This document shows positions 38,109-56,455 of a stretch of 64,000 bases of DNA, in pieces. The stretch is from Spirochaetia bacterium (GTDB lineage Bacteria > Spirochaetota > Spirochaetia > SZUA-6 > Bin103), in assembly GCA_965208575.1 (NCBI GenBank), contig CBDBOV010000004.1, positions 1,088,001-1,152,000 of the forward strand, in the 5' to 3' direction. The notes under the pieces were generated by a model. The model saw only the letters and a list, made by a program, of their open reading frames with translations. It was not told where the DNA came from and searched no databases. Position 1 is the stretch's first letter. Each line of letters starts with the position of its first letter. The position numbers were made by a program, and so were the translations under genes.

Positions 38109-38690
38109 CTAGCCGCCGAACGTTCGCGGCCTGAAGTCTTCGGCGTTGGTGATACTCGCGCTGCTGCCGGTCGCCCTGATCACGTACAGCCCGCGCGGCT
38201 CCGCGTACACCTCCGCCGACTCGTCCGCGCGCAGGTACGCCACCGCCCCGTATACCCGCTTGCCCCGGTACCCCGACGGCGCCTCGGACGGAAACACCTT
38301 CAGCGTCTCGATGAAGCGATCGACCTGACTCGCCTTGAGCGTGGTCTTCACTTCCACCACCACCACCTCGTCACCGCCGGCGGCGATGATGTCGATCTCC
38401 CAGCGCGGTGCGCCGTTCCTGCTCTTGAGGCCGCACACCGTGTGGTCGACCTCGATGCCGCGCCGGCTGAGCAACTCGATCAGGTCGCCTTCGACGAGAG
38501 CCTCCACCAGCTTGCTCCACTGACCGTTGAACAGATCCTCCAGCCGGCGCAGTTTACGGTCGGTCTCCTTCATCTGCCGGTCGGTCTCCTGCATGCGGCG
38601 GTCGGTCTCGCGCTGGCTCGCCGAGACTTCACGCAGGATGTTCCAGATCTCCTGCGGGGTTGCGGGCTCCTGCCGTGCGGTGTCAGCCAT
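38109..38690 (-). CDS. Coiled-coil plus PD-(D/E)XK nuclease-fold protein (DUF3782-like)
   Basis: ETDRRMQ/ETDRQMK/ETDRKLR heptads; EIDI...VVEVK. Confidence 0.78.
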   Translation of the reverse strand: MADTARQEPATPQEIWNILREVSASQRETDRRMQETDRQMKETDRKLRRLEDLFNGQWSKLVEALVEGDLIELLSRRGIEVDHTVCGLKSRNGAPRWEIDIIAAGGDEVVVVEVKTTLKASQVDRFIETLKVFPSEAPSGYRGKRVYGAVAYLRADESAEVYAEPRGLYVIRATGSSASITNAEDFRPRTFGG

Positions 38691-38789
38691 TGGATCTTCT
38701 CGTAGCCGAAACATACCCTGCCGGCGTGCCACTGCCAACGCCGACACAACCAACAAGCAAGCGCCAAAACGCGCGCACCCGACCGGGGC

Positions 38790-38892
38790 GACTCAACGAG
38801 GCCGGGACCAATGGTCCCGGAAGGGGTCGGTGTGATACACGATCTCGCCTACGGCGTAGTCGCTTCAAGAAGGCCGCCGTGGAGGCGGTTGA
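38790..38892 (-). ncRNA. Cryptic CRISPR-like mini-array (pseudo-repeat, 37-nt spacer, pseudo-repeat); candidate cas-regulating RNA
   Basis: 38862-38892 GCTTCAAGAAGGCCGCCG-TGGA-GGCGG (16/18 to the array repeat start); 38790-38824 GACTCAACGAGGCCGGGACCAATGGTCCCGGAA (12/15 plus hairpin); spacer matches 38927-38940. Confidence 0.85.
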
Positions 38893-38900
38893 ATCTGTGC

Positions 38901-38930
38901 TTGACCTATCCACGTAATCAAGCTTAGACT
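38901..38930 (+). promoter_or_regulatory. Predicted sigma70 promoter of the cas3 operon
   Basis: TTGACC-18 nt-TAGACT in an AT-rich patch. Confidence 0.7.
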
Positions 38931-38940
38931 ATGCCGTAGG
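38924..38940 (+). promoter_or_regulatory. PAM (TTA) plus partial protospacer for the mini-array spacer
   Basis: TTA-GACTATGCCGTAGG versus spacer 5' end GACTACGCCGTAGG. Confidence 0.8.
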
Positions 38941-38957
38941 TAAAGGGCTATGGTCAA
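38928..38957 (-). promoter_or_regulatory. Predicted promoter of the mini-array
   Basis: Minus strand TTGACC-18 nt-CATAGT; the -10 is weak. Confidence 0.45.
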
Positions 38958-39197
38958 GGCAGAGCTGATTGTCAAAAGCACCGTGACTCGCCAGCGCTCG
39001 TTACGAGCAGCGGCCGGCTCATGGCACGTCGCCGCCGTGGAGGAACGCATGCGCACGCGGTGTGTGCACATAATATTCCACGACGGTGGGAAGTGGGAGT
39101 CGCCCGGTCCGCCCGATCGTGATCAACCTGGTGTCGACGCCGGCCAACCGCTGACAAGCGATGCGCCCGATCAGATTCCGGGTGCCGAGTCGCCACG

Positions 39198-41646
39198 ATG
39201 ACCTACGCTGGATTCTTCTCGGCAGCTTTCGGAGCGAGCGCTACGCCGTTTGCATACCAGCGAGCGCTTGCCGAGCGTGACTGGCCGGAAGCACTCATCG
39301 CACCGACAGGTCTTGGCAAAACTGCAGCGGTAGTTCTCGCTTGGCTGTGGAAACGTGCTACCGCGCCGGAGACTGCGCCACGGCGTTTGGTGTACTGCCT
39401 CCCTATGCGCACGCTCGCCGACCAGACGGCGCGCAACGTGGTGGCATGGCTGCGCCGGCTCGCTCCGCTCCTCGCTGACTGGGAGGCTCGTCTCCCGCGC
39501 CCAGAGACCGACGTCCACGTGCTCAAGGGCGGGGTGGACGAGCCGCGTTGGTACGAACACCCGGAGCGTCCGACGATTCTCATCGGGACTCAGGACATGC
39601 TGATAAGCCGCGCACTGATGCGCGGATACGCAATGAGCCGCTTCCGCTGGCCGGTCGACTTCGCCCTGCTCCACAACGACGCGCAGTGGGTGTTCGACGA
39701 AGTCCAGCTCATGAGTTCGGGGCTGGCGACTTCCACGCAGCTTGAAGGATTCCGGCGCCGATTCGGGACCGCGGTCGACTCTGCCAGCCTTTGGGTCTCG
39801 GCGACGCTGCACCCGGAGTGGCTGCGCACGGTCGATGGGCCGGCCAATCCGACCGTGTGGCGGGTGCCGGACGATTTTCCCGGCGACAAGGAGTCGCCCG
39901 CGGTGCGCAGGCGGATCGACGCGCCGAAACACATCGCACCGTCACGGGTGCGACCGGCAAGCGCCCGGAAGGCGGATCTGAGTGCCTACGTGCGGGAACT
40001 GGCCGGAGAAGCCCTCGCCTGTCATCAGCCGGGTACGATGACGCTGGTGATCCTCAACACGGTCGCCCGCGCGCAGCAGGTGCACGCCGCCCTCGTCAGG
40101 CACGGAACACCGTCCGACCGCCTGGCTCTGGTCCACTCCCGGTTTCGCCATGCCGACCGTACCGAGCAAATGACCAAGCTCCGACAACCGCTTACCACCG
40201 ACGGCCTGATCGTCGTCACCACGCAGGCGATCGAGGCTGGCGTCGACCTGTCCGCCGCCACGCTGATCACCGAACTCGCCCCGGCTTCTTCGTTGGTGCA
40301 GCGATTCGGCCGGGTGAACCGCTACGGCGAGTTGAATGAGAGCGGCGGCGCAACCGTCCGCTGGGTCGATCTTGCCGACATTGATGACACGCTCGCCGCA
40401 CCGTACGAACCGCGGGAGTTGACCACCGGCCGCGCGCGCATTGCACACCTGAGAGATGCCCGGCCGGCGCATCTTTCACCCCCGGCGCCTGAAGACTGCC
40501 GCCATCGCTGGGTAATCCGCGGTAAGGACCTGATCGACTTGTATGACACCGACCCGGACCTCACCGGATTCGACGTCGACGTCTCGCCGTACGTACGCGA
40601 CGCGGAAGACACCGACGTCCAGGTGTTCTGGCGCGACTTCGACCGTTCCGAAGGACCGGTCGGCCAGCCGCCTCCGGGGCACGAAGAGCTGTGCTCGGTG
40701 CCGATCGGACAGGCACGCGACTGGCTCAAGAAGGTGCGGGAGAAGCAGCGGCTGCGCCCGTATCAGGCCGATCCGCAGGCGCGGCGGCGCGGCGGCGCAT
40801 CGCACCACACCTCGTGGGTACCGCTCGACTCCCCCCCGTGGCCCGGTCTTGTGCTGATGTTCCACGTAGGAGCAGGCGGATACTCGTCAGCGACCGGATT
40901 CGACGCCGCCGAAACGGAGCCGGTCGTACCGGTGGGCCGCGCGGAAGAAGATGCTCGGGTAGCCGAGTCGCTCGACACGGATCCCGACAGCGAGCATCCG
41001 GCAGTGCCGCTGACCGCTCATCTCCGGCACGTGGCGACCGAGGGAGAACGGCTGTGTGACGCACTCGGGGTCTCCGCCGGCAACGCCGAGATCGCACTCG
41101 CGGCGCGCTGGCATGACATCGGAAAGTCACACCCGACGTTTCAGGAGCGCCTCGGCGTGAGCGCTACCGGCGCGCTGCTCGCCAAGGCGCCGCACTACGA
41201 CGTGACCCGAGGGCGCCCCTACTTCCGCCATGAACTGGCGTCTGCGCTGGCGTATCTCACCCACGCCGGGTGGGTGCGTGGCGCCGACCTGGTCGCGTAC
41301 CTCATCGCTGCCCACCACGGCAAGGTGCGCATGAACCTGCGTGCGCTGCCGGCGGAATCGCCGGCCACGAGCGCCGATGGCAATCCCGATACGCGCCGCT
41401 TCGCACGCGGCGTATGGGAGGGTGACGAGCTTCCGGAGGTCGACCTGCCGGCCGGCGAGAAGTGGAACGGCGGCGCACTGACCCTGGCGGTCATGGAACT
41501 GGGAGACGATGATCGAACCGGAGCGAGTTGGACCGAACGGACGCGCAACCTCCTGGAACGGTATGGGCCGTTTCGACTCGCATTCCTGGAATCCTTGCTG
41601 AGGGTCGCCGACTGGCGCGCATCGGCTACCGAAGAGGCAAACGGCT

Positions 41647-41657
<11 letters not shown>
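39198..41657 (+). CDS. cas3: Type I-G Cas3 (N-terminal helicase, C-terminal HD nuclease)
   Basis: APTGLGKT, DEVQ, SAT, QRFGRVNR; C-terminal HDIGK, HH, RVAD. Confidence 0.95.
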
Positions 41658-44911
<3,254 letters not shown>

Positions 44912-44924
44912 GTCGCCCGCTGAC

Positions 44925-46646
44925 ATGCTCGCGCTGTCGTTCAGCTTCCCGGCACATCGCTACCACGCCACGCCTTGGGGCCGTCACGTCAACGAAGCGG
45001 ACGTCGCATGGCCGCCGGAGCCGTGGCGGATACTCCGAGCCCTGATCGCCGCGTACTGGCGCAAGGGAACCTGTAATGACTGGTCGAAGGAAGATGCCAC
45101 GAGCCTGATCGATGCACTCGCCGCGGCGCCGCCGATATATCATCTGCCGGAAGGCACCGTGCATGCGCATACCCGACACTACATGCCGGCGCCGACCAAG
45201 ACCACGCTCGTGTTCGATGCGTTCGCTCACCTGCCGGACGGCGCAGCGATCGTCGCGGCGTGGCCGGAGTTGGTACTGGAGCCGCGGCAGTTCGCGCTGG
45301 CCGCCGACCTTGCCGAAGGCATCGGATACCTTGGACGCGCCGAGAGCTGGGTGGAGTGCACCGCGCTTACGAAGTGGGACGTTACTCTGGCGAACTGCCT
45401 GCCGGAGGATTACTCGGGGAACGGATCCGGCGAGATGGTGGGGGTGTTGACGCCGCTCACCGCGTCCGCTTACGCCGCGCGGCGGGCGCGCCTCCTCGGG
45501 CAGGCAGACGCCGACGAACGAGCCGCCGCTCACGCCGCCGCGAAGCGTCCGCCTACCGAAGGAGTGTTGCGCCGGAAGCGGGACCGGACCTTCGGCGTCA
45601 CGCTGCCCGAGCGCCTCATGGATGCGGTTGCGGTCGATACCGCGGACTTCCAGAAGCACGGCTGGAATCGGCCGCCCGCCGCACATGAAGTCAGTTACCG
45701 GCGCGCACCTCTCTCACCCCACCCGCGCCGTCCCGCGGGTCGAAGCGATCGCCCGCTCGATCGCTCCCGCTACACCGTAGCGCGCTATCTGCTCGCCGGC
45801 CGCCCGCAGCCGCGCATCGAAGACGCGGTCAAGATCGGCGAGCTGATGCGCGTAGCCGCGCTTTCCAAGTTCGGCTGGGAGAAGGATCCGCGCACGGGGC
45901 GCGGCAGACCCCTGGCACCGCCGGAGATCTCCGGGCGTGGCGAGGGCAACACGCCGTTGCGCGACGCGCACCACTCGCACGCGTTCTGGCTTCCGGAAGA
46001 TGCCGATGGCGACGGTCTGATCGACCACGTGTGCGTGTGCGCCGCCACCGGATTCGACGACCGCGCGCGAGTGGCATTGGATCGACTGACGCGCCTGTGG
46101 CTGCGGACCGGCACCTCGGAAGATTCGGCTGACCGCGACGGCGGGGGGCGCCGCGAGTGGCGGCTCGCGCTGGAGGGGTTCGGCACCTGCGATGAGTTCG
46201 CGCAAGCGTCCGCTTTGTTTCGCCGCGCGCGCACGTGGCAAAGCGTTACCCCCTTCCTGTCGACCGGCCACCTGAAACGGACGCGGGACGCACGCCAGGT
46301 ACGCCACATGCTGGAGCAGGGCCAACCGGTTGACGGCACCCTGGCGGACGCCACCGGCTACCCGCGCGAAGTGCGCCGTCTGCTGCAACGCCGCGGCATA
46401 CTCGCCGGCCCGCTCGCCGAGCAACTCGAGATCGAAATCCTGCCCCACATCGAGGTACACGGCGCTCCGCGCCGCCCCCTGCAATTCCACCGCTTCCGCT
46501 CCCGCGGCCGCGAAGCTGCCACCGATGCCCACGGAACCCTGCTCCGCCTCCGGTTCCCCGACGAGGTCCGCGGCCCCCTCGCACTCGGCTACGGCTGCCA
46601 CTTCGGCCTCGGCCTGTTCGCCGCCTGCGAGGAGCAGCCCACATGA
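44925..46646 (+). CDS. csb2: Type I-G Cas5/Cas6 fusion (Csb2)
   Basis: YHATPWG, WPPEPWR, YLGRAESW, WQSVTPF, GPLALGYGCHFGLGLF. Confidence 0.93.
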   Translation: MLALSFSFPAHRYHATPWGRHVNEADVAWPPEPWRILRALIAAYWRKGTCNDWSKEDATSLIDALAAAPPIYHLPEGTVHAHTRHYMPAPTKTTLVFDAFAHLPDGAAIVAAWPELVLEPRQFALAADLAEGIGYLGRAESWVECTALTKWDVTLANCLPEDYSGNGSGEMVGVLTPLTASAYAARRARLLGQADADERAAAHAAAKRPPTEGVLRRKRDRTFGVTLPERLMDAVAVDTADFQKHGWNRPPAAHEVSYRRAPLSPHPRRPAGRSDRPLDRSRYTVARYLLAGRPQPRIEDAVKIGELMRVAALSKFGWEKDPRTGRGRPLAPPEISGRGEGNTPLRDAHHSHAFWLPEDADGDGLIDHVCVCAATGFDDRARVALDRLTRLWLRTGTSEDSADRDGGGRREWRLALEGFGTCDEFAQASALFRRARTWQSVTPFLSTGHLKRTRDARQVRHMLEQGQPVDGTLADATGYPREVRRLLQRRGILAGPLAEQLEIEILPHIEVHGAPRRPLQFHRFRSRGREAATDAHGTLLRLRFPDEVRGPLALGYGCHFGLGLFAACEEQPT

Positions 46647-46779
46647 CGAACTGCCAAGGTTGCCGATGCAGACTCCCCGTAAGTGACGGTCGATCCGCGC
46701 ACACTCGGTGGATAATGCGCGCCACTGACAGACACTGGACACGAGACGGCATCCGCGACCGGCCTCCTTGGGTATAGCG

Positions 46780-47280
46780 ATGGCACGCTGGATTGGTCCC
46801 GACCGAGACATCAGCGACGTTCTGGCCGCAGCCGAGCTGTGGCGCGATCGGTGCTTCCTGGGTGGCGGCTCGGTGTTCGGAGACGAGGCCCTGTGGGCGC
46901 TGGAGAATATTCAACAGGTCCGCGAGTTGTGTCCGGCTGAGAAAAAAGAGACAAGCGATGCTGCTTGGGCGCGGCTCAAGCAGCAATTGACCAACGCGAC
47001 GCCTCAGGTGATTCGTATGACCGCAGAGGCGGTGTGGCTGGCGTACCTGTTTCCGAGCGGTCCGCCCGGCGCGTTCAAGCGCCAGCGCTTCATGGAGTTG
47101 TGGGCGCTGTCCGGTGCCGAGCGGCCACGGAGCGGGCACCTGAGCGACTCGGCACTCCAGGGCATAGGAAGTGTCTATGGCGCGCATTTTAGAATCAGCA
47201 ATCCATTGCGCTTTCTGATGGAATTGCTGGAGCGCTGGGCAGCACGACCGACCACGGCGCTGCCAAGAGAGCGCCGGTGA
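46780..47280 (+). CDS. Hypothetical protein resembling the N-terminus of McrB-like proteins, probably truncated
   Basis: AAELWRDRCF...LW...LKQQL...AEAVWLAYLF pattern recalled from such proteins; no NTPase domain follows. Confidence 0.45.
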   Translation: MARWIGPDRDISDVLAAAELWRDRCFLGGGSVFGDEALWALENIQQVRELCPAEKKETSDAAWARLKQQLTNATPQVIRMTAEAVWLAYLFPSGPPGAFKRQRFMELWALSGAERPRSGHLSDSALQGIGSVYGAHFRISNPLRFLMELLERWAARPTTALPRERR

Positions 47281-47386
47281 CTACGAAAGCCAGGAGAGTC
47301 GAGCATCGTTTGGCTTCCGCCGCCGCGCACGTTCCGCAGCGGGGACGCTCGACAAGACGCGGCGTTACGCGCGACTCTCAAGATCA

Positions 47387-48280
47387 ATGAAAGAGACCCG
47401 CCCTCGGAAGGCCAGCACGACCGCGATACTGGTGGCCGCGGTGCGCGCCAGCCACCTCAGGTGGAATCGCGCGCCAATCTTCTCTGACCAGCACGCCATC
47501 GAGCTGGTGACGCCGTTCTGGCGGCTGGTCGCCAACAACTGGTTGCTGAACCGACTCGTGGTCGACGTGCTGATCCGCACGCTCAAGCCCACGCACACCG
47601 TGATCATCCTGCGCATCAGGTACGCGGAGGACCGGCTCCATGAGGCGATCTCGTCCGGGGTGCGGCAGTACGTGATCCTCGGAGCCGGGCTCGACACGTT
47701 CGCCCTTCGCCATCGCGAGCTGGCGGATCGGCTGCGCATCTACGAAGTCGATCATCCGGCATCGCAGGAGATGAAGCGAGAGCAACTTGGCCGCGTTGGC
47801 AGCTCGCTGCCTTCGAATCTACGGTTCGTACCGGTCGACTTCGAGACCGACCGCCTCGACGAGGCACTCATCCGGGCCGGCTTCGACCGTGAAGCTCCGG
47901 CCTTCTTTGCGTGGCTTGGCGTCACGTGCTACCTGACGACAGAGGCCGTGACCGACACGATCGGCCAGGTTGCCGCTCTTGCCGCGCCGGGCAGCCGCAT
48001 GGTGCTCGACTACCGGTATCCGCGGCGCCTTGTTCCCGATGCCAAGCTGGCGCTCGTCGAGAAGATGGACCGATTCGTGGAACGCCGCGGTGAGCCGATG
48101 CTGTCAGAATACGGCCCCGAGGAGATCGACACTGAGATGGAGCGGGCCGGCTTCACGGCGATCGATCACGTCTCGCCGACCGAACAAGTGCGGCGCTACC
48201 TGCAGGAACGCCGCGACATCCCCGAGCCGCCCCCCAACTTCGCGTTCGCCCTGTTCGAGAAGAGCAGCACGAGCAAGTGA
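47387..48280 (+). CDS. Class I SAM-dependent methyltransferase (LCM-like)
   Basis: QYVILGAGLDTFA, YEVDHPA, FVPVDFE, WLGVTCYL. Confidence 0.9.
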   Translation: MKETRPRKASTTAILVAAVRASHLRWNRAPIFSDQHAIELVTPFWRLVANNWLLNRLVVDVLIRTLKPTHTVIILRIRYAEDRLHEAISSGVRQYVILGAGLDTFALRHRELADRLRIYEVDHPASQEMKREQLGRVGSSLPSNLRFVPVDFETDRLDEALIRAGFDREAPAFFAWLGVTCYLTTEAVTDTIGQVAALAAPGSRMVLDYRYPRRLVPDAKLALVEKMDRFVERRGEPMLSEYGPEEIDTEMERAGFTAIDHVSPTEQVRRYLQERRDIPEPPPNFAFALFEKSSTSK

Positions 48281-48363
48281 TCCGTGCTCCCGTTCGCTGT
48301 GGCGCGGCCCGGCGGCTCCACCTGCGGAGCGTCAGGGCGCCGCACGAACGCACCGCGGACGCG

Positions 48364-48576
48364 GACAATCCCGACCGCGAACTGGTCGAGAAGCGAGCCG
48401 ACTACGCGGAGACCGGCATCCCGGAGTACTGGATCGCCGACCCGCGCGACGAGACGATTCGCGTGCTGACGCTGCGGGGCACCGCCTACTTCGAGCAAGC
48501 TGTGTATCGACACGGCAACGCGGCGCCGTCGGCTCTGCTCGCCCGCTTCTCTGCCGAGGTGAGCACGGTGTTCGAC
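48364..48576 (+). pseudogene. Uma2-family endonuclease C-terminal fragment
   Basis: DRELVEKRADYAETGIPEYWIADP; N-terminus absent. Confidence 0.75.
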
Positions 48577-48627
48577 TCCCCGGTGGCCGGCGTGCAGCCC
48601 TTCGTATCGCCGAGCGACCGTGCTGTT

Positions 48628-49242
48628 TCATCCAAAGAGACTGCGGTAATCGCCGCGGAACACCAACGGTTGGAGACGCCTGTTCTCCTGCGTGACCGGC
48701 CCGCCCGACAGAATCTGACGTGCTCGCAGAGCATCGGAATCGTCGAGAAAGCTACCGGTATGGACGAAGTGATCGGGAAAGAGCAGGTCGAACTCCGTGC
48801 GATAGCCGTCGTCAATGATCACGAAGCGCCCGACGTCCGGGTGCGTGTCCAGGTACTGCTTTACTTCGCCTGCGCGGTAATGCGGCGCACCCAGGTGGTC
48901 GCACGTGCGATCAGTGACCAGGTGATCGAGGTCGTGAATGCGGAACAGCGCCTGGAGTTGCGCCACCGACCGCCGTTGCCGCCAATCCGAACTGACCACG
49001 ACCTTTGCGTCGTGGTCGTCGCATAGCGCGCGCAGCCGCGCCACCGCCACGGCGTGCCAGTCATGGACGACGGCTCCCAGGTCGTACTCGTTCACCTCCC
49101 GGTATTCGGCGCCGAACCGCTCGGCGAGGCGTTCCCGCAACGCGACGAGGTCGTGCTTGAAACGCTTCTGGCTCGACGGCGGCTGCAACACTCCGTCGAT
49201 GTCCAGGAAGACGATCCGGCTCGTAGGTGGGCTATCGTGCAT
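48628..49242 (-). CDS. HAD-domain protein (Swiss Army Knife RNA-repair-like, HAD_SAK_2)
   Basis: IVFLDIDGVL, VVSSDWR, RAGEV, FVIIDD. Confidence 0.8.
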   Translation of the reverse strand: MHDSPPTSRIVFLDIDGVLQPPSSQKRFKHDLVALRERLAERFGAEYREVNEYDLGAVVHDWHAVAVARLRALCDDHDAKVVVSSDWRQRRSVAQLQALFRIHDLDHLVTDRTCDHLGAPHYRAGEVKQYLDTHPDVGRFVIIDDGYRTEFDLLFPDHFVHTGSFLDDSDALRARQILSGGPVTQENRRLQPLVFRGDYRSLFG

Positions 49243-49373
49243 CAATAGGTACCATCCCGAGAGTCCTCGGTTGTGCCGCCGCGCGTCAACAACGCGTCCA
49301 ATCCGTTACTCTTGAGGAGCGGGACGAGCCTCCCTGCAAGCCTGCATGATAACTAGTTGACTGTGCAGGTGAC

Positions 49374-52300
49374 GCTTCAATGAGGCCGCCGGAATTCACC
49401 GGCGGAAACGTGGGCGGGTGGCAGATTCGCACGACCATCCCGTTCGGCGCTTCAATGAGGCCGCCGGAATTCACCGGCGGAAACGTCTGGGCAAACGAAA
49501 CGCTGAGGTGCACTTCGTCAAGCTTCAATGAGGCCGCCGGAATTCACCGGCGGAAACCCGACTCACCGCAGGTCGCAAAGCGTTTCGTAGGCTACCGGCT
49601 TCAATGAGGCCGCCGGAATTCACCGGCGGAAACCTCCCCTCGGTGTAGGACGCCCCCACGAGCGACACGCCGCTTCAATGAGGCCGCCGGAATTCACCGG
49701 CGGAAACACGCCGTAGAACCCCAGGTCCTCGTAGTGCCCCTCGTAGCTTCAATGAGGCCGCCGGAATTCACCGGCGGAAACACGCCGTAGAACCCCAGGT
49801 CCTCGTAGTGCCCCTCGTAGCTTCAATGAGGCCGCCGGAATTCACCGGCGGAAACTACTTCTTTTCGACCTTGTGAACCTCTACGTTCGTGAAGCTTCAA
49901 TGAGGCCGCCGGAATTCACCGGCGGAAACAACATCATCGGCGCGCTTGCCGGTTGCAAGCCAATTAGCGCTTCAATGAGGCCGCCGGAATTCACCGGCGG
50001 AAACGACACGCGGCCGCGGTGCTGCACGCGGGAAGCGGCGCTTCAATGAGGCCGCCGGAATTCACCGGCGGAAACCGTGGTGAGCGCCATGCTTGCCTGT
50101 CTGGTGTTCATCATGCTTCAATGAGGCCGCCGGAATTCACCGGCGGAAACATCACACAAAGCCTGCCGAGCGCATGGTCGCTAATCTCGCTTCAATGAGG
50201 CCGCCGGAATTCACCGGCGGAAACCGCATACCTGCTCGGTCGTGCCGTCAGCACGGCGCAGCGTGCTTCAATGAGGCCGCCGGAATTCACCGGCGGAAAC
50301 CAGCTTCCTCGTATGCTGCAGCAGTTAGCAGAATATGTCTGCTTCAATGAGGCCGCCGGAATTCACCGGCGGAAACCAGGTTGCACAGCCCGGCATCCAC
50401 GGGGTGTGCGAAGCTTCAATGAGGCCGCCGGAATTCACCGGCGGAAACGCCGACCCGGAGGTCACGTTCAACACGCGCCCGGCGGGGCTTCAATGAGGCC
50501 GCCGGAATTCACCGGCGGAAACTTGAAGATCATAGACCGAGACGTCGAAATGCGGCACGGCTTCAATGAGGCCGCCGGAATTCACCGGCGGAAACACGGC
50601 ATAATCATCTACCGGAGTAGCGGAATTGGAAACGCTTCAATGAGGCCGCCGGAATTCACCGGCGGAAACTACGCTTAGCTTCCGGGTTCTTAATCCGTGT
50701 AGATTCATGCTTCAATGAGGCCGCCGGAATTCACCGGCGGAAACCATCCTGTACATGATGGTACATTTGAGTACCATTAGGCGGCTTCAATGAGGCCGCC
50801 GGAATTCACCGGCGGAAACACCGATGAAAATTCTGGAGCGCCGGCGCGAACGGCTCCTGCTTCAATGAGGCCGCCGGAATTCACCGGCGGAAACATGTAT
50901 CGCGGCGCCGCGCGCGTCCGATACCTGCACGCTTCAATGAGGCCGCCGGAATTCACCGGCGGAAACCAGCGCTGCGTTTCGATGGCGCTGGCAACCCAGC
51001 CATCGAGCTTCAATGAGGCCGCCGGAATTCACCGGCGGAAACCACCCATAGGCCGACCGGGGTTTGCGCCGGCCCCTTCCGCTTCAATGAGGCCGCCGGA
51101 ATTCACCGGCGGAAACCCCGCCCGGATCTCGGGTGGAAGACAAGATCGCCTGGGCGCTTCAATGAGGCCGCCGGAATTCACCGGCGGAAACACCCGAACT
51201 GACCCGGAGGGTACAGTTGACGAAAAGCCGCTTCAATGAGGCCGCCGGAATTCACCGGCGGAAACGGCTCACAGGACTTGATACACGCCGCGCAACAACA
51301 GGCTTCAATGAGGCCGCCGGAATTCACCGGCGGAAACACCGGGACGGACGTTACCCTGGAGACGGAGACGCACGCTTCAATGAGGCCGCCGGAATTCACC
51401 GGCGGAAACGCGTTCTGGGAACGACTCGACGAGGAGTACGGCAACACCGCTTCAATGAGGCCGCCGGAATTCACCGGCGGAAACCCGTTCGAGCAATTCA
51501 TGGCGCAGCGTGAGGCGCTGCGCTTCAATGAGGCCGCCGGAATTCACCGGCGGAAACTACTATTGTCGCACATCCGTCAACCCCCGTCAACCCCTGCTTC
51601 AATGAGGCCGCCGGAATTCACCGGCGGAAACGTCACCGGACTCGGCGCGTGGATCGACGGCGCGTTCGGGGCTTCAATGAGGCCGCCGGAATTCACCGGC
51701 GGAAACCCGTCCCCTCCGGGATCGGATCACTCCCATCATCCCCGCGCTTCAATGAGGCCGCCGGAATTCACCGGCGGAAACACTGACCCCGGAGGGTCAA
51801 CCAGTGACGAAAAGTCAGCTTCAATGAGGCCGCCGGAATTCACCGGCGGAAACACGCCGTTCAGCGCGACATTGAGCGACTGCCGATCGCCGCTTCAATG
51901 AGGCCGCCGGAATTCACCGGCGGAAACACGCCGTTCAGCGCGACATTGAGCGACTGCCGATGGCCGCTTCAATGAGGCCGCCGGAATTCACCGGCGGAAA
52001 CGTTTCGACCGCCTCAGGATGCCCGCACAGCGCGATTCCGCTTCAATGAGGCCGCCGGAATTCACCGGCGGAAACCAGCGGCCGCCGTGCCAGCGCAGAT
52101 ACTCATTCACCGCCGCTTCAATGAGGCCGCCGGAATTCACCGGCGGAAACCCATCCGCACCACCCTTGTCGAACCGCTGGAGGAGGGGGCTTCAATGAGG
52201 CCGCCGGAATTCACCGGCGGAAACTGCGCCGACGAGGTCGTCCGCTTGTGTGAAGATGACGCCGCTTCAATGAGGCCGCCGGAATTCACCGGCGGAAACC

Positions 52301-54153
52301 AGGTAGTATATTGATAGTGGGCGGTTGACGCCAGCCCGCTTCAATGAGGCCGCCGGAATTCACCGGCGGAAACGCCAGCGGCGGCCCGCTGCTCGGCCGG
52401 GTCCGGCTCGCTTCAATGAGGCCGCCGGAATTCACCGGCGGAAACTCGTAGAGCACCTGGAAGTCGAAGGACACGCGCTCCTCGCTTCAATGAGGCCGCC
52501 GGAATTCACCGGCGGAAACGCACCACGTGAACGGTGACCCCGGCGACAACCGGATCGGGCTTCAATGAGGCCGCCGGAATTCACCGGCGGAAACTTGCTC
52601 CCGATCCTCCGCCTCCGGTGAGGGCTACGTCGGGCTTCAATGAGGCCGCCGGAATTCACCGGCGGAAACCACCTGCGCGGCGCACCGAGCGGTCGCGTGT
52701 ACGAAGTGCTTCAATGAGGCCGCCGGAATTCACCGGCGGAAACTTCACCACCACGGGTGCCTACGCGGGCGGAGTGGCGGCTTCAATGAGGCCGCCGGAA
52801 TTCACCGGCGGAAACGGCACCGACTTCCGCCCGGTGTTCGAGTACATGGAACGCGCTTCAATGAGGCCGCCGGAATTCACCGGCGGAAACGCCGACGTGC
52901 TCACCCTGCGTGACGGTCAGAGACTCCGCGCTTCAATGAGGCCGCCGGAATTCACCGGCGGAAACTCGCGGGTGCCGGGGTGGCGGAGGCGCGGGCGGTT
53001 CAAGTGCTTCAATGAGGCCGCCGGAATTCACCGGCGGAAACCGGAAGACCATAGCCAGCGACGGACGCAAGCTTTTCTAGCTTCAATGAGGCCGCCGGAA
53101 TTCACCGGCGGAAACGCGCTGCGCGATTGGTTGTCGTCAGAGTGGATCACAGACGCTTCAATGAGGCCGCCGGAATTCACCGGCGGAAACTCGGCGCCGA
53201 TAGCGACGCAGCCAACAACCCGAACGGGGCTTCAATGAGGCCGCCGGAATTCACCGGCGGAAACGCCGCGAGGTCACGTGCTATCGCATCGTCCCACCCC
53301 ACGCTTCAATGAGGCCGCCGGAATTCACCGGCGGAAACGGAGCCATCGACGTGGCCTCATGCGTCTCACATTGCCCTGCTTCAATGAGGCCGCCGGAATT
53401 CACCGGCGGAAACGCGGACATCGTAGGGCAAGGGGCCGACGACATCACAATCGCTTCAATGAGGCCGCCGGAATTCACCGGCGGAAACCCACGTGACAGT
53501 TGAAGAGGCTCTGCAACAGGTAAACCAGCTTCAATGAGGCCGCCGGAATTCACCGGCGGAAACCAGTGTTGCCGGCAAGGTTGCGCGCGGGTGGCGCGGC
53601 TGGGCTTCAATGAGGCCGCCGGAATTCACCGGCGGAAACTTGCGCAAGGCGAGCGTCGACGCTTCAGAGGTGTCATTGCTTCAATGAGGCCGCCGGAATT
53701 CACCGGCGGAAACCTGTTCTCGACGCCGACGCGCTTCGCCAAGCTCACCTGGCTTCAATGAGGCCGCCGGAATTCACCGGCGGAAACCTCGACCTGGAGG
53801 ATTCGGAGCGCCGCGTGAAGGTGCTTCAATGAGGCCGCCGGAATTCACCGGCGGAAACCCGTGATGCGCACTCAATACCGCTGCTCCGCCTACCCCGCTT
53901 CAATGAGGCCGCCGGAATTCACCGGCGGAAACTCATCGGGGCCGGCGGAGCCCTCGTCGGCGGAATCGTCGGCTTCAATGAGGCCGCCGGAATTCACCGG
54001 CGGAAACATCGACCGCCTCATGAGGAAGGGCGCCACTCTACAGGCTTCAATGAGGCCGCCGGAATTCACCGGCGGAAACTGGCGCAGCAATCCGACCAGC
54101 AACGCCAGGCCTCCTGGGCTTCAATGAGGCCGCCGGAATTCACCGGCGGAAAC
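49374..54153 (-). CRISPR. CRISPR array: 65 repeats of 36 bp and 64 spacers of 35-40 bp (hand count)
   Basis: Repeat on -: GTTTCCGCCGGTGAATTCCGGCGGCCTCATTGAAGC; the ATTGAAGC 3' end and the leader next to cas2 give the orientation. Confidence 0.99.
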
Positions 54154-54359
54154 GGACGGCGATCAACTCTTCGCTGTGCGGGGAATTATTGAGCACAATG
54201 CGAGCGCTGAAGCACGACCGTTGATGGCGGGGAAGCATTTTCGAAACCTCTTGGTATTCTAATCCATATCTCTGTGTATGTCAAAGACCTGGCGCCTTGC
54301 GAGCGGTCCCTTGGAGTGCGCGCGGCACCGGAGCGCTCGGTCGGCGGCGGCAGCGGCCA
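54154..54359 (-). promoter_or_regulatory. CRISPR leader with sigma70 promoter
   Basis: Minus strand TTGACA (54284-54279), 17 nt, TAGAAT (54261-54256); AT-rich. Confidence 0.85.
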
Positions 54360-54655: not shown

Positions 54656-56455
54656 CTAGCGGGTCGTGAAGTTCGGATACGCGGGGATCTCACCGAGCAT
54701 GAATCGGCCCAGCAGGCGGGCCTGGATCTCCATGAGCCGGCGGTAGCTTACCCGGTACCCGAATAGCGGGTGCACGATCTCGTGGCCCAGGCGGCGCTCG
54801 AACGCGCCGATCAGGTGGCGCCTGCCGTCCGGCGTCAGGGCGACGGCCCCGGCGGCGGCCCTGAAGTCGGATGCCTTCACTTCGCCGTTGTTGATTACCT
54901 GCACCACCACCGAGTCGGCGAGCAGCGGTCGAAACGGCTCCATGAGATCCAGGGCGAGGGCGGGACGGCCGTAGCGCGGCTGATGAAAGAGACCGCGAAA
55001 CGGATCGAACCCGACCGCGGCGAGCGTCACGGTCCAGGCTCGGACGAGCAACGAGTACGCGAACGACAGCAGCGCGTTGACCGGGTCGGTTGGCGGGCGC
55101 CGGTTGCGCTTCTCGAAGTCGAACGCTCCCTGCCCCTCGCGCATCCCCTCGCTGATCATGGCCCCGAACACGCGGAAGTAGCGCGCGGCGGCGGTGCCCT
55201 CTACGCCGAGCAGCACCGACAGCGACCGGCAGCGAGCCACGCGCCTGCTGTCGTCCCGGAGCTCGATCATCACGTCGTGGCTGCTGGCGGGGCCTTTCCA
55301 GTTGCGGCGCAGCAGAGTGCGGGAGTTGAGGATCTTGGCCCGCACCAGGTCCTTCGCGAACCGCAGACACACGTCCTCGTCGAAGCTGGCCCGATACTGG
55401 GCGGTGCGCAGTTCCACGTTCTTGTGTCCGTTGCCAACCGTGTGGCCGTAGAACCAGCCGCCGTGGCTGTGCCAGGTAACCGGAATCCCCCGCCACATCA
55501 ACTCCTGCAGGCAAGGCGTGGTGACGTACACGCTGCCCATCAGCACCACCTGCGAGGTCTCCGGCAGGCGGGCGGTAGTTACCTTCTCGTCCTTGACGCT
55601 GACCACCAGGTTTTCGCCCGACTTGGCCACCCTTGCGCCGCGCGCCTGCACGTACAGCGGCAGCGCATCGGTCCCCGGCACCGCAATCGGCCGCGGCGCC
55701 ATTTCTGGACGCGACAGCAGCCGCAGGTGGTTGATCTCATCCGGCAGGCAGATGTTCACCAGTGAGCAGCGCGGACACTTCGGGCTGTCCTCCAGCGGCG
55801 GCGGGATCACTCCCTCGGCCGCGACCCGCCGCAGCCCGGCAACCGCCTGCTTGGTGGCGGACACCAGTTCCTCGTCGAACGGCACCCGAACGCGCTCGCG
55901 TCCGGCTACGAAGTAGAGTACGCCCTCGTCACATCGGTACCCCCGGTCACGCAGGATCAGGCCCTGAACGCACAGTTGCACCCGCTCCGGTTCGTACGCG
56001 CCGCCCTTCACGTGCGGGCGCTTGCCGCGCTTGTAGTCGACCGGTACGACCCCACCATCCGCCACCTCGATCAGGTCCATGCGCGAGATCAAGCCGAGCC
56101 GCTGCGACGACAGCGTGACCGACCTGGCGTGCAGCTTCTCGTACTCTCCGGCGTCGGCGGCTGCCGGCAACGACCCGCCACTTCGGTCCACCCTGCGGTG
56201 GGCGTGCCTTCCCTCGACCGTGTCCGCCGAGTCCGCCCACTCACCCTGCACCCACTCCAGGTACGCCAGTCGCGGACAGTACGCGTACTCATTGACCATG
56301 CGCGCCGGCACCAGCGGGGGTGCCTCACCGGGAGCCGGGAACGCAAGTTCGCCTTGGCGCGGCGGGGCGTTCCGTTCGACTTGTGCCTTCCGGTCGCCAA
56401 CCAGCCGCGGTGCGTCGTGTGCAGCAGCGGCACGTCTATCATCATTCCCGCTCAT
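54656..56455 (-). CDS. cas1: Cas4-Cas1 fusion
   Basis: Cas4: YCPRL, DYKRG, QLC, CPRCSL..IC; Cas1: GVEG, RNRRPPTDPVNALLS, LALDLMEPFRP; start uncertain. Confidence 0.95.
   Translation of the reverse strand: MSGNDDRRAAAAHDAPRLVGDRKAQVERNAPPRQGELAFPAPGEAPPLVPARMVNEYAYCPRLAYLEWVQGEWADSADTVEGRHAHRRVDRSGGSLPAAADAGEYEKLHARSVTLSSQRLGLISRMDLIEVADGGVVPVDYKRGKRPHVKGGAYEPERVQLCVQGLILRDRGYRCDEGVLYFVAGRERVRVPFDEELVSATKQAVAGLRRVAAEGVIPPPLEDSPKCPRCSLVNICLPDEINHLRLLSRPEMAPRPIAVPGTDALPLYVQARGARVAKSGENLVVSVKDEKVTTARLPETSQVVLMGSVYVTTPCLQELMWRGIPVTWHSHGGWFYGHTVGNGHKNVELRTAQYRASFDEDVCLRFAKDLVRAKILNSRTLLRRNWKGPASSHDVMIELRDDSRRVARCRSLSVLLGVEGTAAARYFRVFGAMISEGMREGQGAFDFEKRNRRPPTDPVNALLSFAYSLLVRAWTVTLAAVGFDPFRGLFHQPRYGRPALALDLMEPFRPLLADSVVVQVINNGEVKASDFRAAAGAVALTPDGRRHLIGAFERRLGHEIVHPLFGYRVSYRRLMEIQARLLGRFMLGEIPAYPNFTTR

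Follow-up and report, generated by a model that had tools for sequence, protein, structure and literature searches.

Whether a type I-G CRISPR-Cas system (clusters of regularly interspaced short palindromic repeats and their associated proteins) can carry a guide RNA against its own promoter is the question raised by a 64,000-nucleotide (nt) stretch of DNA from a Spirochaetia bacterium (GCA_965208575.1, contig CBDBOV010000004.1, positions 1,088,001 to 1,152,000 of the forward strand). This whole stretch is called the window, and coordinates are counted from its first letter. Upstream of cas3g, the first gene of the interference operon, lies a mini-array of two degenerate repeats around one spacer, and the 5′ end of this spacer matches a site in the predicted promoter of the operon. 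A sequence-only reading of the window had proposed that the spacer is a crRNA-like (CRISPR RNA-like) guide whose seed end pairs with the cas promoter beside a TTN motif. That central claim is now supported by guide-target pairs that co-vary between loci, by TTN at 9 of the 11 top-scoring sites and by a register of mismatches at guide positions 6, 12 and 18. Probably, the mini-array is a crRNA-like gene of the CreR (Cas-regulating) type that belongs to the type I-G system beside it.

The system itself is of type I-G, as seen from its four cas models and from a repeat in which a hairpin is followed by 4 nt and then by a handle of 8 nt. The cut-offs of all four I-G NCBIfam models (Cas3g, Cas8g/Csx17, Csb1/Cas7g and Csb2) are exceeded in the plus-strand operon cas3g-cas8g(csx17)-csb1(cas7g)-csb2 at 39198-46646, in which neighbouring genes overlap or are separated by 13 nt. 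It is made up of cas3g (39198-41657, 748 bits), cas8g/csx17 (41647-43968), csb1/cas7g (43958-44911) and csb2 (44925-46646). The only CRISPR array of the 6.5-Mb genome lies at 49374-54153 and contains 65 identical 36-nt repeats and 64 spacers of 35-40 nt. The minus-strand reading of the repeat, GUUUCCGCCGGUGAAUUCCGGCGGCCUCAUUGAAGC, folds into a 7-bp hairpin followed by 4 nt and then 8 nt (-14.8 kcal/mol). According to the accessible text of Shangguan et al. (2022), the cut of I-G Csb2 falls 4 nt 3′ of the 7-bp hairpin, so that an 8-nt 5′ handle is left. An I-G repeat of Methanosarcina barkeri likewise ends in AATTGAAGC. Since the repeat of the window has this layout and a comparable end, the array is most likely read on the minus strand, and the mini-array too.

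The mini-array occupies 38789-38897 on the minus strand. It is separate from the main array, from which it is 10.5 kb away, and lies upstream of cas3g at a distance of 300-400 nt. Its 5′ pseudo-repeat (38862-38897) consists of a weak 5-bp hairpin, CCGCC (38888-38884) with GGCGG (38878-38874), then CCUU and the handle CUUGAAGC (38869-38862), which agrees with the AUUGAAGC of the repeat at 7 of 8 positions. The pseudo-spacer, or guide, follows at 38825-38861 and begins with GACUACGCCGUAGG (nt 1-14). The 3′ pseudo-repeat (38789-38824) reads CCUU, an 8-bp hairpin (38820-38802), CCUC and then GUUGAGUC. Two degenerate repeats had been reported here by the sequence-only reading and are indeed present, with their limits adjusted: the 5′ copy extends to about 38897 instead of 38892, and the 3′ copy spans 38789-38824. 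The spacer, described there as of normal length, is 37 nt long, within the range of the array spacers.

Several observations tie the mini-array to the repeat of the system. A search of the repeat's first 19 nt with at most three mismatches found 66 matches; the array accounts for 65, and the sole outside one is at 38862-38880, where 0.10 were expected by chance. With gaps allowed, 25 bases of the 5′ pseudo-repeat and 24 of the 3′ pseudo-repeat are identical to the 36-nt repeat. Repeat and pseudo-repeats share the order of hairpin, 4 nt and 8 nt with UUGAAGC at the end, and because this order matches the Csb2 cleavage product, the anatomy fits I-G biochemistry. The hairpin of the 3′ pseudo-repeat is about as stable as that of the true repeat (-15.4 vs -14.8 kcal/mol), and it is conserved in an alignment of 12 sequences, in which 84% of the cells are paired, four of the eight pairs have changed on both sides and the score is best at zero slide. 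By analogy with the known cleavage, Csb2 would cut between 38798 and 38797 and leave a mature RNA of 72 nt, from 38869 to 38798. The gene next to the mini-array (38109-38690, minus strand) encodes a 193-residue protein with a weak match to Hjc/NERD-type nucleases and contains a 21-nt tandem repeat in 2.5 copies (38557-38609) that encodes ETDR-rich heptads; a tblastn search found no such gene beside the mini-array in 11 related loci.

The target of the guide lies at 38927-38940 on the plus strand, between the mini-array and cas3g. The complementarity described by the sequence-only reading was found again: nt 1-14 match at 13 of 14 positions, nt 6 is the sole mismatch, and pairing is lost after nt 14, with guide positions 15, 16 and 18 mismatching as well. 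The protospacer-like site is preceded by TTA (38924-38926), which fits the TTN reported as the protospacer-adjacent motif (PAM) of type I-G. In the whole genome, 337,772 sites are flanked by TTN, and the target alone among them agrees with the guide at 12 of the 12 non-flipped positions of nt 1-14 (two runners-up reach 11 and a further 54 reach 10). As the best match among all these sites, the guide-target match is not due to chance.

The position of the target relative to promoter signals was equally as claimed. A promoter scan of 38600-39300 found three promoter-like sites, against 0.1 in shuffled sequences. The single one on the plus strand is a predicted sigma-70-type promoter facing cas3 at 38901-38930, with -35 TTGACC (38901-38906), an N18 spacer and -10 TAGACT (38925-38930), and the target overlaps this -10 box by 4 nt. 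A full-length Cascade footprint on the target would extend to 38963. On the minus strand, a candidate promoter of the mini-array is predicted at 38928-38957, with -35 TTGACC (38957-38952), N18 and -10 CATAGT (38933-38928), so that its -10 box lies inside the target. Because this candidate promoter overlaps the target, the guide may limit its own synthesis too. In all nine loci with the layout of the window, the -10 box of a plus-strand promoter-like site has its end somewhere from 7 nt upstream of the protospacer to 4 nt within it. A minus-strand promoter-like site overlaps the target in three of the nine (the window, L001 and L004), and in L003 one lies about 24 nt past the target.

A search upstream of homologous I-G cas3 genes for co-varying pairs of spacer and promoter, proposed by the sequence-only reading, uncovered such pairs in seven of eight genomes of the same clade and in four distant loci. 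A Cas3g search yielded 80 loci, from which L072 and L073 were dropped for having almost no upstream sequence; the sample thus comprises the 900 nt upstream of cas3g in 78 loci and in the window, 79 regions in all. The four closest loci (L001-L004, 71-79% Cas3 identity, recorded as Spirochaetia metagenome-assembled genomes, MAGs) have the same arrangement as the window, with different spacer 5′ ends and with targets that match them. Among 92 genomes of the same order, the cas3g type of the window occurs in eight, and in two that this search added, G002 (L112) and G008 (L113), the element is again present upstream of cas3g. An intact pair is thus carried by seven of the eight genomes (the window, L001-L004, L112 and L113), and in these seven the 5′ end of the spacer co-varies with a TTN-flanked site in the -10/start region.

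By sequence or register, the seven pairs of the clade can be sorted into four variants. One register is common to the window and G008, whose guides differ at nt 3 together with their targets (C in spacer and target of the window, T in both in G008). In the other five pairs, a conserved target core, GCCGTAGGC, lies two positions further in, and the target G that is paired in the window there falls on position 12, where it is mismatched. The distant carriers have unrelated pairs of their own: two gammaproteobacterial MAGs (L037 and L056), a Bryobacterales MAG (L014) and Roseomonas genomospecies 6 ATCC 49961 (L018). L037 and L056 share the layout of the window, and in L014 and L018 the mini-array runs in the same direction as cas3. 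In the genomes of L056, L014 and L018, the array repeats end in CCTCATTGAAGC, as they do in the window. In L018, the mini-array lies at 2745-2860 and has a 14/15 match to a target at 2276-2296 with the PAM TTC, about 480 nt upstream of the mini-array and about 725 nt from cas3; the target adjoins a TTGACG box and a long hairpin, and this mini-array may control another gene.

The same regions allow the association to be put in numbers. They contain 56 TTGAAGN handles, and in nine cases the 18-mer after the handle agrees with a TTN-flanked site of its own region at no fewer than 13 of 15 positions when positions 6, 12 and 18 are ignored. When spacers were compared with the regions of other loci, the count was 1 in 560. 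Without the PAM filter there are 11 matches, nine with TTN (the background of TT is 0.043), and the remaining two are one TCG site and one direct repeat. A plain count of 18-nt matches, without PAM or register, was too noisy in GC-rich DNA, as was a first unfiltered scan. A match in L099/L114 was rejected as a target, being a self-overlap caused by a tandem GCTTC duplication.

The register of the mismatches is that expected of Cascade. While ignoring positions 6, 12 and 18 gives nine loci, each of the five other registers gives none or one, and this test is not biased by the choice of pairs for their matches. Across the 11 pairs, 146 of 165 cells match at the non-flipped positions, each of which holds two to four different bases, vs 6 of 33 at positions 6, 12 and 18 (4 of 22 at positions 6 and 12). 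In no pair does complementarity continue beyond nt 17-18. On these comparisons, five paired positions followed by a free one is the pairing pattern of type I Cascade and the one predicted by the structure of I-G Cascade. The two properties of type I-G that the sequence-only reading had drawn on, the flipping of every sixth base and the TTN PAM, agree with the accessible text of Shangguan et al. (2022).

These results bear on two alternative explanations of the locus. The mini-array might be the decayed end of an array or a stray pair of repeats that resembles the promoter by chance and has no function. Such an origin would suit the degeneracy of the pseudo-repeats (24-25 of 36 bases identical to the repeat) and the disrupted version seen in the relative G005. 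Set against it are the genome-unique match, the enrichment of 9/56 vs 1/560, pairs that co-vary and keep the 6-nt mismatch register across lineages, and a 3′ hairpin conserved with compensatory changes; nor are the related loci assembly duplicates of one sequence, since their spacers differ. A functionless remnant is hardly credible on this evidence. The other explanation takes the two arms, 38848-38861 and 38927-38940 (14 nt, 93% complementary), as the site of a dimeric protein regulator or as an RNA or DNA hairpin, the link to the pseudo-repeats being incidental. They do form the best inverted repeat of the intergenic region, and the core GCCGTAGGC is partly palindromic and conserved in the clade. 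An operator or hairpin, however, gives no reason for a mismatch register of 6/12/18 counted from the handle and leaves unexplained why one arm always stands directly after UUGAAGN and the other after TTN; moreover, a transcript from the predicted minus-strand promoter would start downstream of the target arm and hence would not contain both arms. This explanation is very improbable.

As a crRNA-like gene, the mini-array would act in the following way. It would be transcribed on the minus strand, in the sense of the main array, and Csb2 would cut both pseudo-repeats 4 nt 3′ of the hairpin, giving an RNA of about 72 nt in which the guide of 37 nt stands between the handle CUUGAAGC and a hairpin at the 3′ end. 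This RNA would load into I-G Cascade (Cas8g, seven Cas7g and Csb2), and the complex would recognise the TTA at 38924-38926 and pair with the bottom strand at 38927-38940 through nt 1-5 and 7-14 of the guide. Seated on the -10/start region of the cas3g-cas8g-cas7g-csb2 promoter, it would block RNA polymerase, and as pairing ends at 14-17 nt, the R-loop would stay incomplete and the chromosome would escape cleavage by Cas3. The operon would be expressed less while free Cascade is plentiful and more once Cascade is claimed by ordinary crRNAs or disabled by an anti-CRISPR, as with CreR elsewhere. The CreR elements of types I-B, I-E and V-A are the basis on which transcription, processing by Csb2, loading, repression and its relief by inhibitors or competing crRNAs are proposed here.

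A third explanation keeps the guide and changes what it guards. In a Cascade-repressed toxin-antitoxin module of the CreTA/CrePA type, the mini-array would be the antitoxin guide and the targeted promoter would mainly drive a toxin, either an 83-residue open reading frame (ORF) at 38950-39201 (+), of uncertain status, or an RNA in the 257-nt leader between target and cas3 that holds this ORF; loss of Cascade would then poison the cell. Guide gene and targeted promoter are divergent, as in creTA and crePA, and the stop codon of the ORF overlaps the ATG of cas3 (ATGA). Four of the nine loci with the layout of the window (the window, L113, L112 and L056) have an ORF of 63-83 residues between target and cas3. 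Two of these, in the same position, are weakly related to the ORF of the window: a 75-residue ORF of L113 (L113:137-361, minus strand) with 35% identity, whose stop also overlaps the start of cas3, and a 63-residue ORF of L056 (L056:2706-2897, plus strand). The 70-residue ORF of L112 appears unrelated in sequence when judged by eye.

Other properties of the ORF and its surroundings disfavour the toxin. The targets of L001-L004 lie 70-133 nt from cas3 with no counterpart of the ORF of the window, and for this reason the conserved partner of the guide is the cas3 promoter. The ORF has no match to a toxin or any other family in NCBIfam, Pfam or PADLOC, no word-sharing homologue among proteins of 45-146 residues and no usable atlas match, and its AlphaFold model shows no confident fold (mean predicted local distance difference test score 43.5). 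A profile of the three ORFs (window, L113 and L056) found three matches among 1.84 billion proteins, two of them close to the ORFs of G008 and L056 and the third with six tandem copies of a unit that shares the motif QRS...SW...HIIF. At third codon positions, the G+C content of the ORF of the window is 0.65, vs 0.74-0.77 for the cas genes. Each induction of the system would also induce any toxin that shares a transcript with cas3. Taken together, a module devoted mainly to a toxin is improbable, while a role as guarded toxin, as in CrePA, is possible for the ORF in the loci that carry it. A different ORF of 65 residues (MNVSKEENTRLTPSTVKLKRLIG...LTPYEIKLLR...), without a Pfam family, lies directly upstream of cas3g at L005:2807-3004 (+) and at the same place in L006, L007 and L009; these loci are Gemmatimonadota and Latescibacterota without a mini-array, and the end of the ORF overlaps the start of cas3.

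Autorepression of the cas operon by a CreR-type guide can also be combined with the ORF in an elaborate form. In this form, the -10 boxes of the cas3 promoter and of the candidate guide promoter, which overlap each other on opposite strands within the target, would give a feedback with two arms, in which the complex shuts off the protein operon as well as its own guide. De-repression would first release a small, fast-evolving protein without a family, found in the window, in G008 and in the distant gammaproteobacterial locus and coupled translationally to cas3; this protein could serve as a toxin guarded by Cascade or as a new accessory factor of I-G. We regard this combination as conceivable and, as a whole, unlikely.

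Several points weigh against the assignment to CreR and moderate its strength. The hairpin of the 5′ pseudo-repeat is weak (-10.2 kcal/mol, z -1.65, equalled by 14 of 200 shuffles), which makes processing by Csb2 on the 5′ side uncertain. The steps of maturation, repression and relief are borrowed from other subtypes, and promoters and start sites are consensus predictions, not mapped ones. TTN at the targets could in part be due to AT-rich promoter sequence rather than to selection for a PAM. Guide nt 1 is mismatched in 3 of the 11 pairs (L002, L003 and L004), and L001, L003 and L112 have a mismatch at a non-flipped seed position, 3, 5 or 8. As the members of the clade are kin, the independent support amounts to about five lineages, not eleven. 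In the eighth genome of the clade, G005 (L114, G005:C110:118-238), the tandem GCTTC duplication stands at the junction of handle and spacer and shifts the conserved block ACGCCGTAGGC out of register with the target; this copy of the mini-array may be decaying. A second cas3g type of about 950 residues from the same bacterial family shows no element of this sort in 15 loci. Finally, the 83-residue ORF downstream of the target makes a toxin circuit possible.

The element was likewise absent from two loci with a third kind of cas3g. Genomes of this family often have two or three I-G cas3g genes of different kinds (loci L082-L096), and the mini-array goes only with the kind of about 820-850 residues, as in the window.

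The remainder of the locus is arranged around the main array. Between csb2 and the array (46768-49315) lie genes other than cas genes, among them a predicted S-adenosylmethionine-dependent methyltransferase (47387-48280, TIGR00027) and an ORF that matches Uma2 putative endonucleases (48277-49026). Across the array from these, on the opposite strand, a 603-residue open frame contains a cas1 match at 54677-55657 (-), and the AT-richer stretch at 54154-54300 (-), between the adaptation genes and the array, resembles a leader in composition. Protospacers from which the PAM could have been read out were sought in a phage collection with the whole array, with zero matches, and a comparison of the 64 spacers with the organism's own genome returned chance matches of 17-23 nt and nothing else. 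A search of sequencing runs for this locus gave six, none recorded as RNA; four belong to a single sample, possibly the source, and two have a share of 0.07.

Type I-G is, to our knowledge, the least studied of the type I subtypes. If the proposed role is correct, I-G Cascade would be stationed at its own promoter by a natural guide, and this would account for the restraint of a system in which Cas3 stays close to Cascade. The pairs would also provide natural data on the seed and PAM rules of type I-G and a ready design for I-G transcriptional silencing with short matches: they keep 14-17 nt of pairing with positions 6, 12 and 18 free, and longer pairing is never seen. Coming from at least five lineages, they can be tested directly with reporters. 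Judging by the titles of papers, type I-G has been taken up for genome editing in Bifidobacterium and other bacteria.

Regulation of cas genes by crRNA-like guides has been described in other subtypes. In the accessible text of Liu et al. (bioRxiv 10.1101/2023.03.10.532045), autorepression by CreR is shown experimentally for types I-B, I-E and V-A, and manual inspection is said to have turned up creA-like mini-CRISPRs for I-D, I-C, I-E, I-F and I-U (the old name of I-G), most of whose targets adjoin the effector promoter. In the literature found, there was no I-G experiment, no description of guide-target rules in I-G and no account of how I-G expression is controlled, with the proviso that supplementary lists may name I-G or I-U examples, perhaps from relatives of this system. 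A table of Shmakov et al. (PMC10120712) gives a mini-array for a fraction of 0.04 of 235 CAS-I-G loci, compared with 9 of 79 cas3g upstream regions and two further clade genomes here. As described in the accessible part of that paper, their mini-arrays resemble that of the window in being standalone pairs of repeats, conserved in related loci, whose spacer shows partial complementarity to a cas promoter; the text names targets for I-E, I-F1, I-D and I-B, and one regulatory mini-array, of I-F1, was shown by reporter assay.

Two further kinds of natural guide are comparable, as far as the accessible sources describe them. The CreA RNAs of CreTA and CrePA (I-B in haloarchaea, I-F in Acinetobacter) share with the window partial pairing, dependence on a PAM, transcriptional repression without cleavage and divergent genes; they silence a toxin RNA or protein, whereas the conserved target of the guide in the window is the promoter of the cas3 operon, with a candidate toxin ORF in some loci only. 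The tracr-L of Streptococcus pyogenes cas9 is likewise a natural guide; it matches its own cas promoter over 11 bp and represses its system without cutting. Unlike the element in the window, it serves a class 2 single-protein effector, derives from a tracrRNA, and works without Cascade and without a 6-nt periodicity.

The closest likeness is to CreR, of which the mini-array shows every sequence-level feature that was tested. Two repeat-like sequences surround one spacer-like sequence beside the cas locus and outside the array; the 5′ pseudo-repeat keeps nucleotides of the handle and the 3′ pseudo-repeat keeps a hairpin; pairing involves the 5′ part of the spacer alone, at a site flanked by a PAM; the target lies in or next to the effector cas promoter, with predicted promoters, in all nine loci of this layout; and the pair is conserved and co-varies in related loci. 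In the accessible descriptions, CreR elements are likewise degenerate mini-CRISPRs of two pseudo-repeats with the same division of handle and hairpin and with a PAM-flanked match to a cas promoter at the 5′ end of the pseudo-spacer only, and most of their loci have no evident toxin partner. Self-repression of a type I-G system would not be new in kind, as CreR has been published and creA-like elements of I-U have been mentioned. From the CreR elements described in those sources, the one in the window differs in its subtype, I-G, in Csb2 as the predicted processing enzyme, in a targeted operon that begins with cas3 and in a candidate promoter of the guide gene that overlaps the target.

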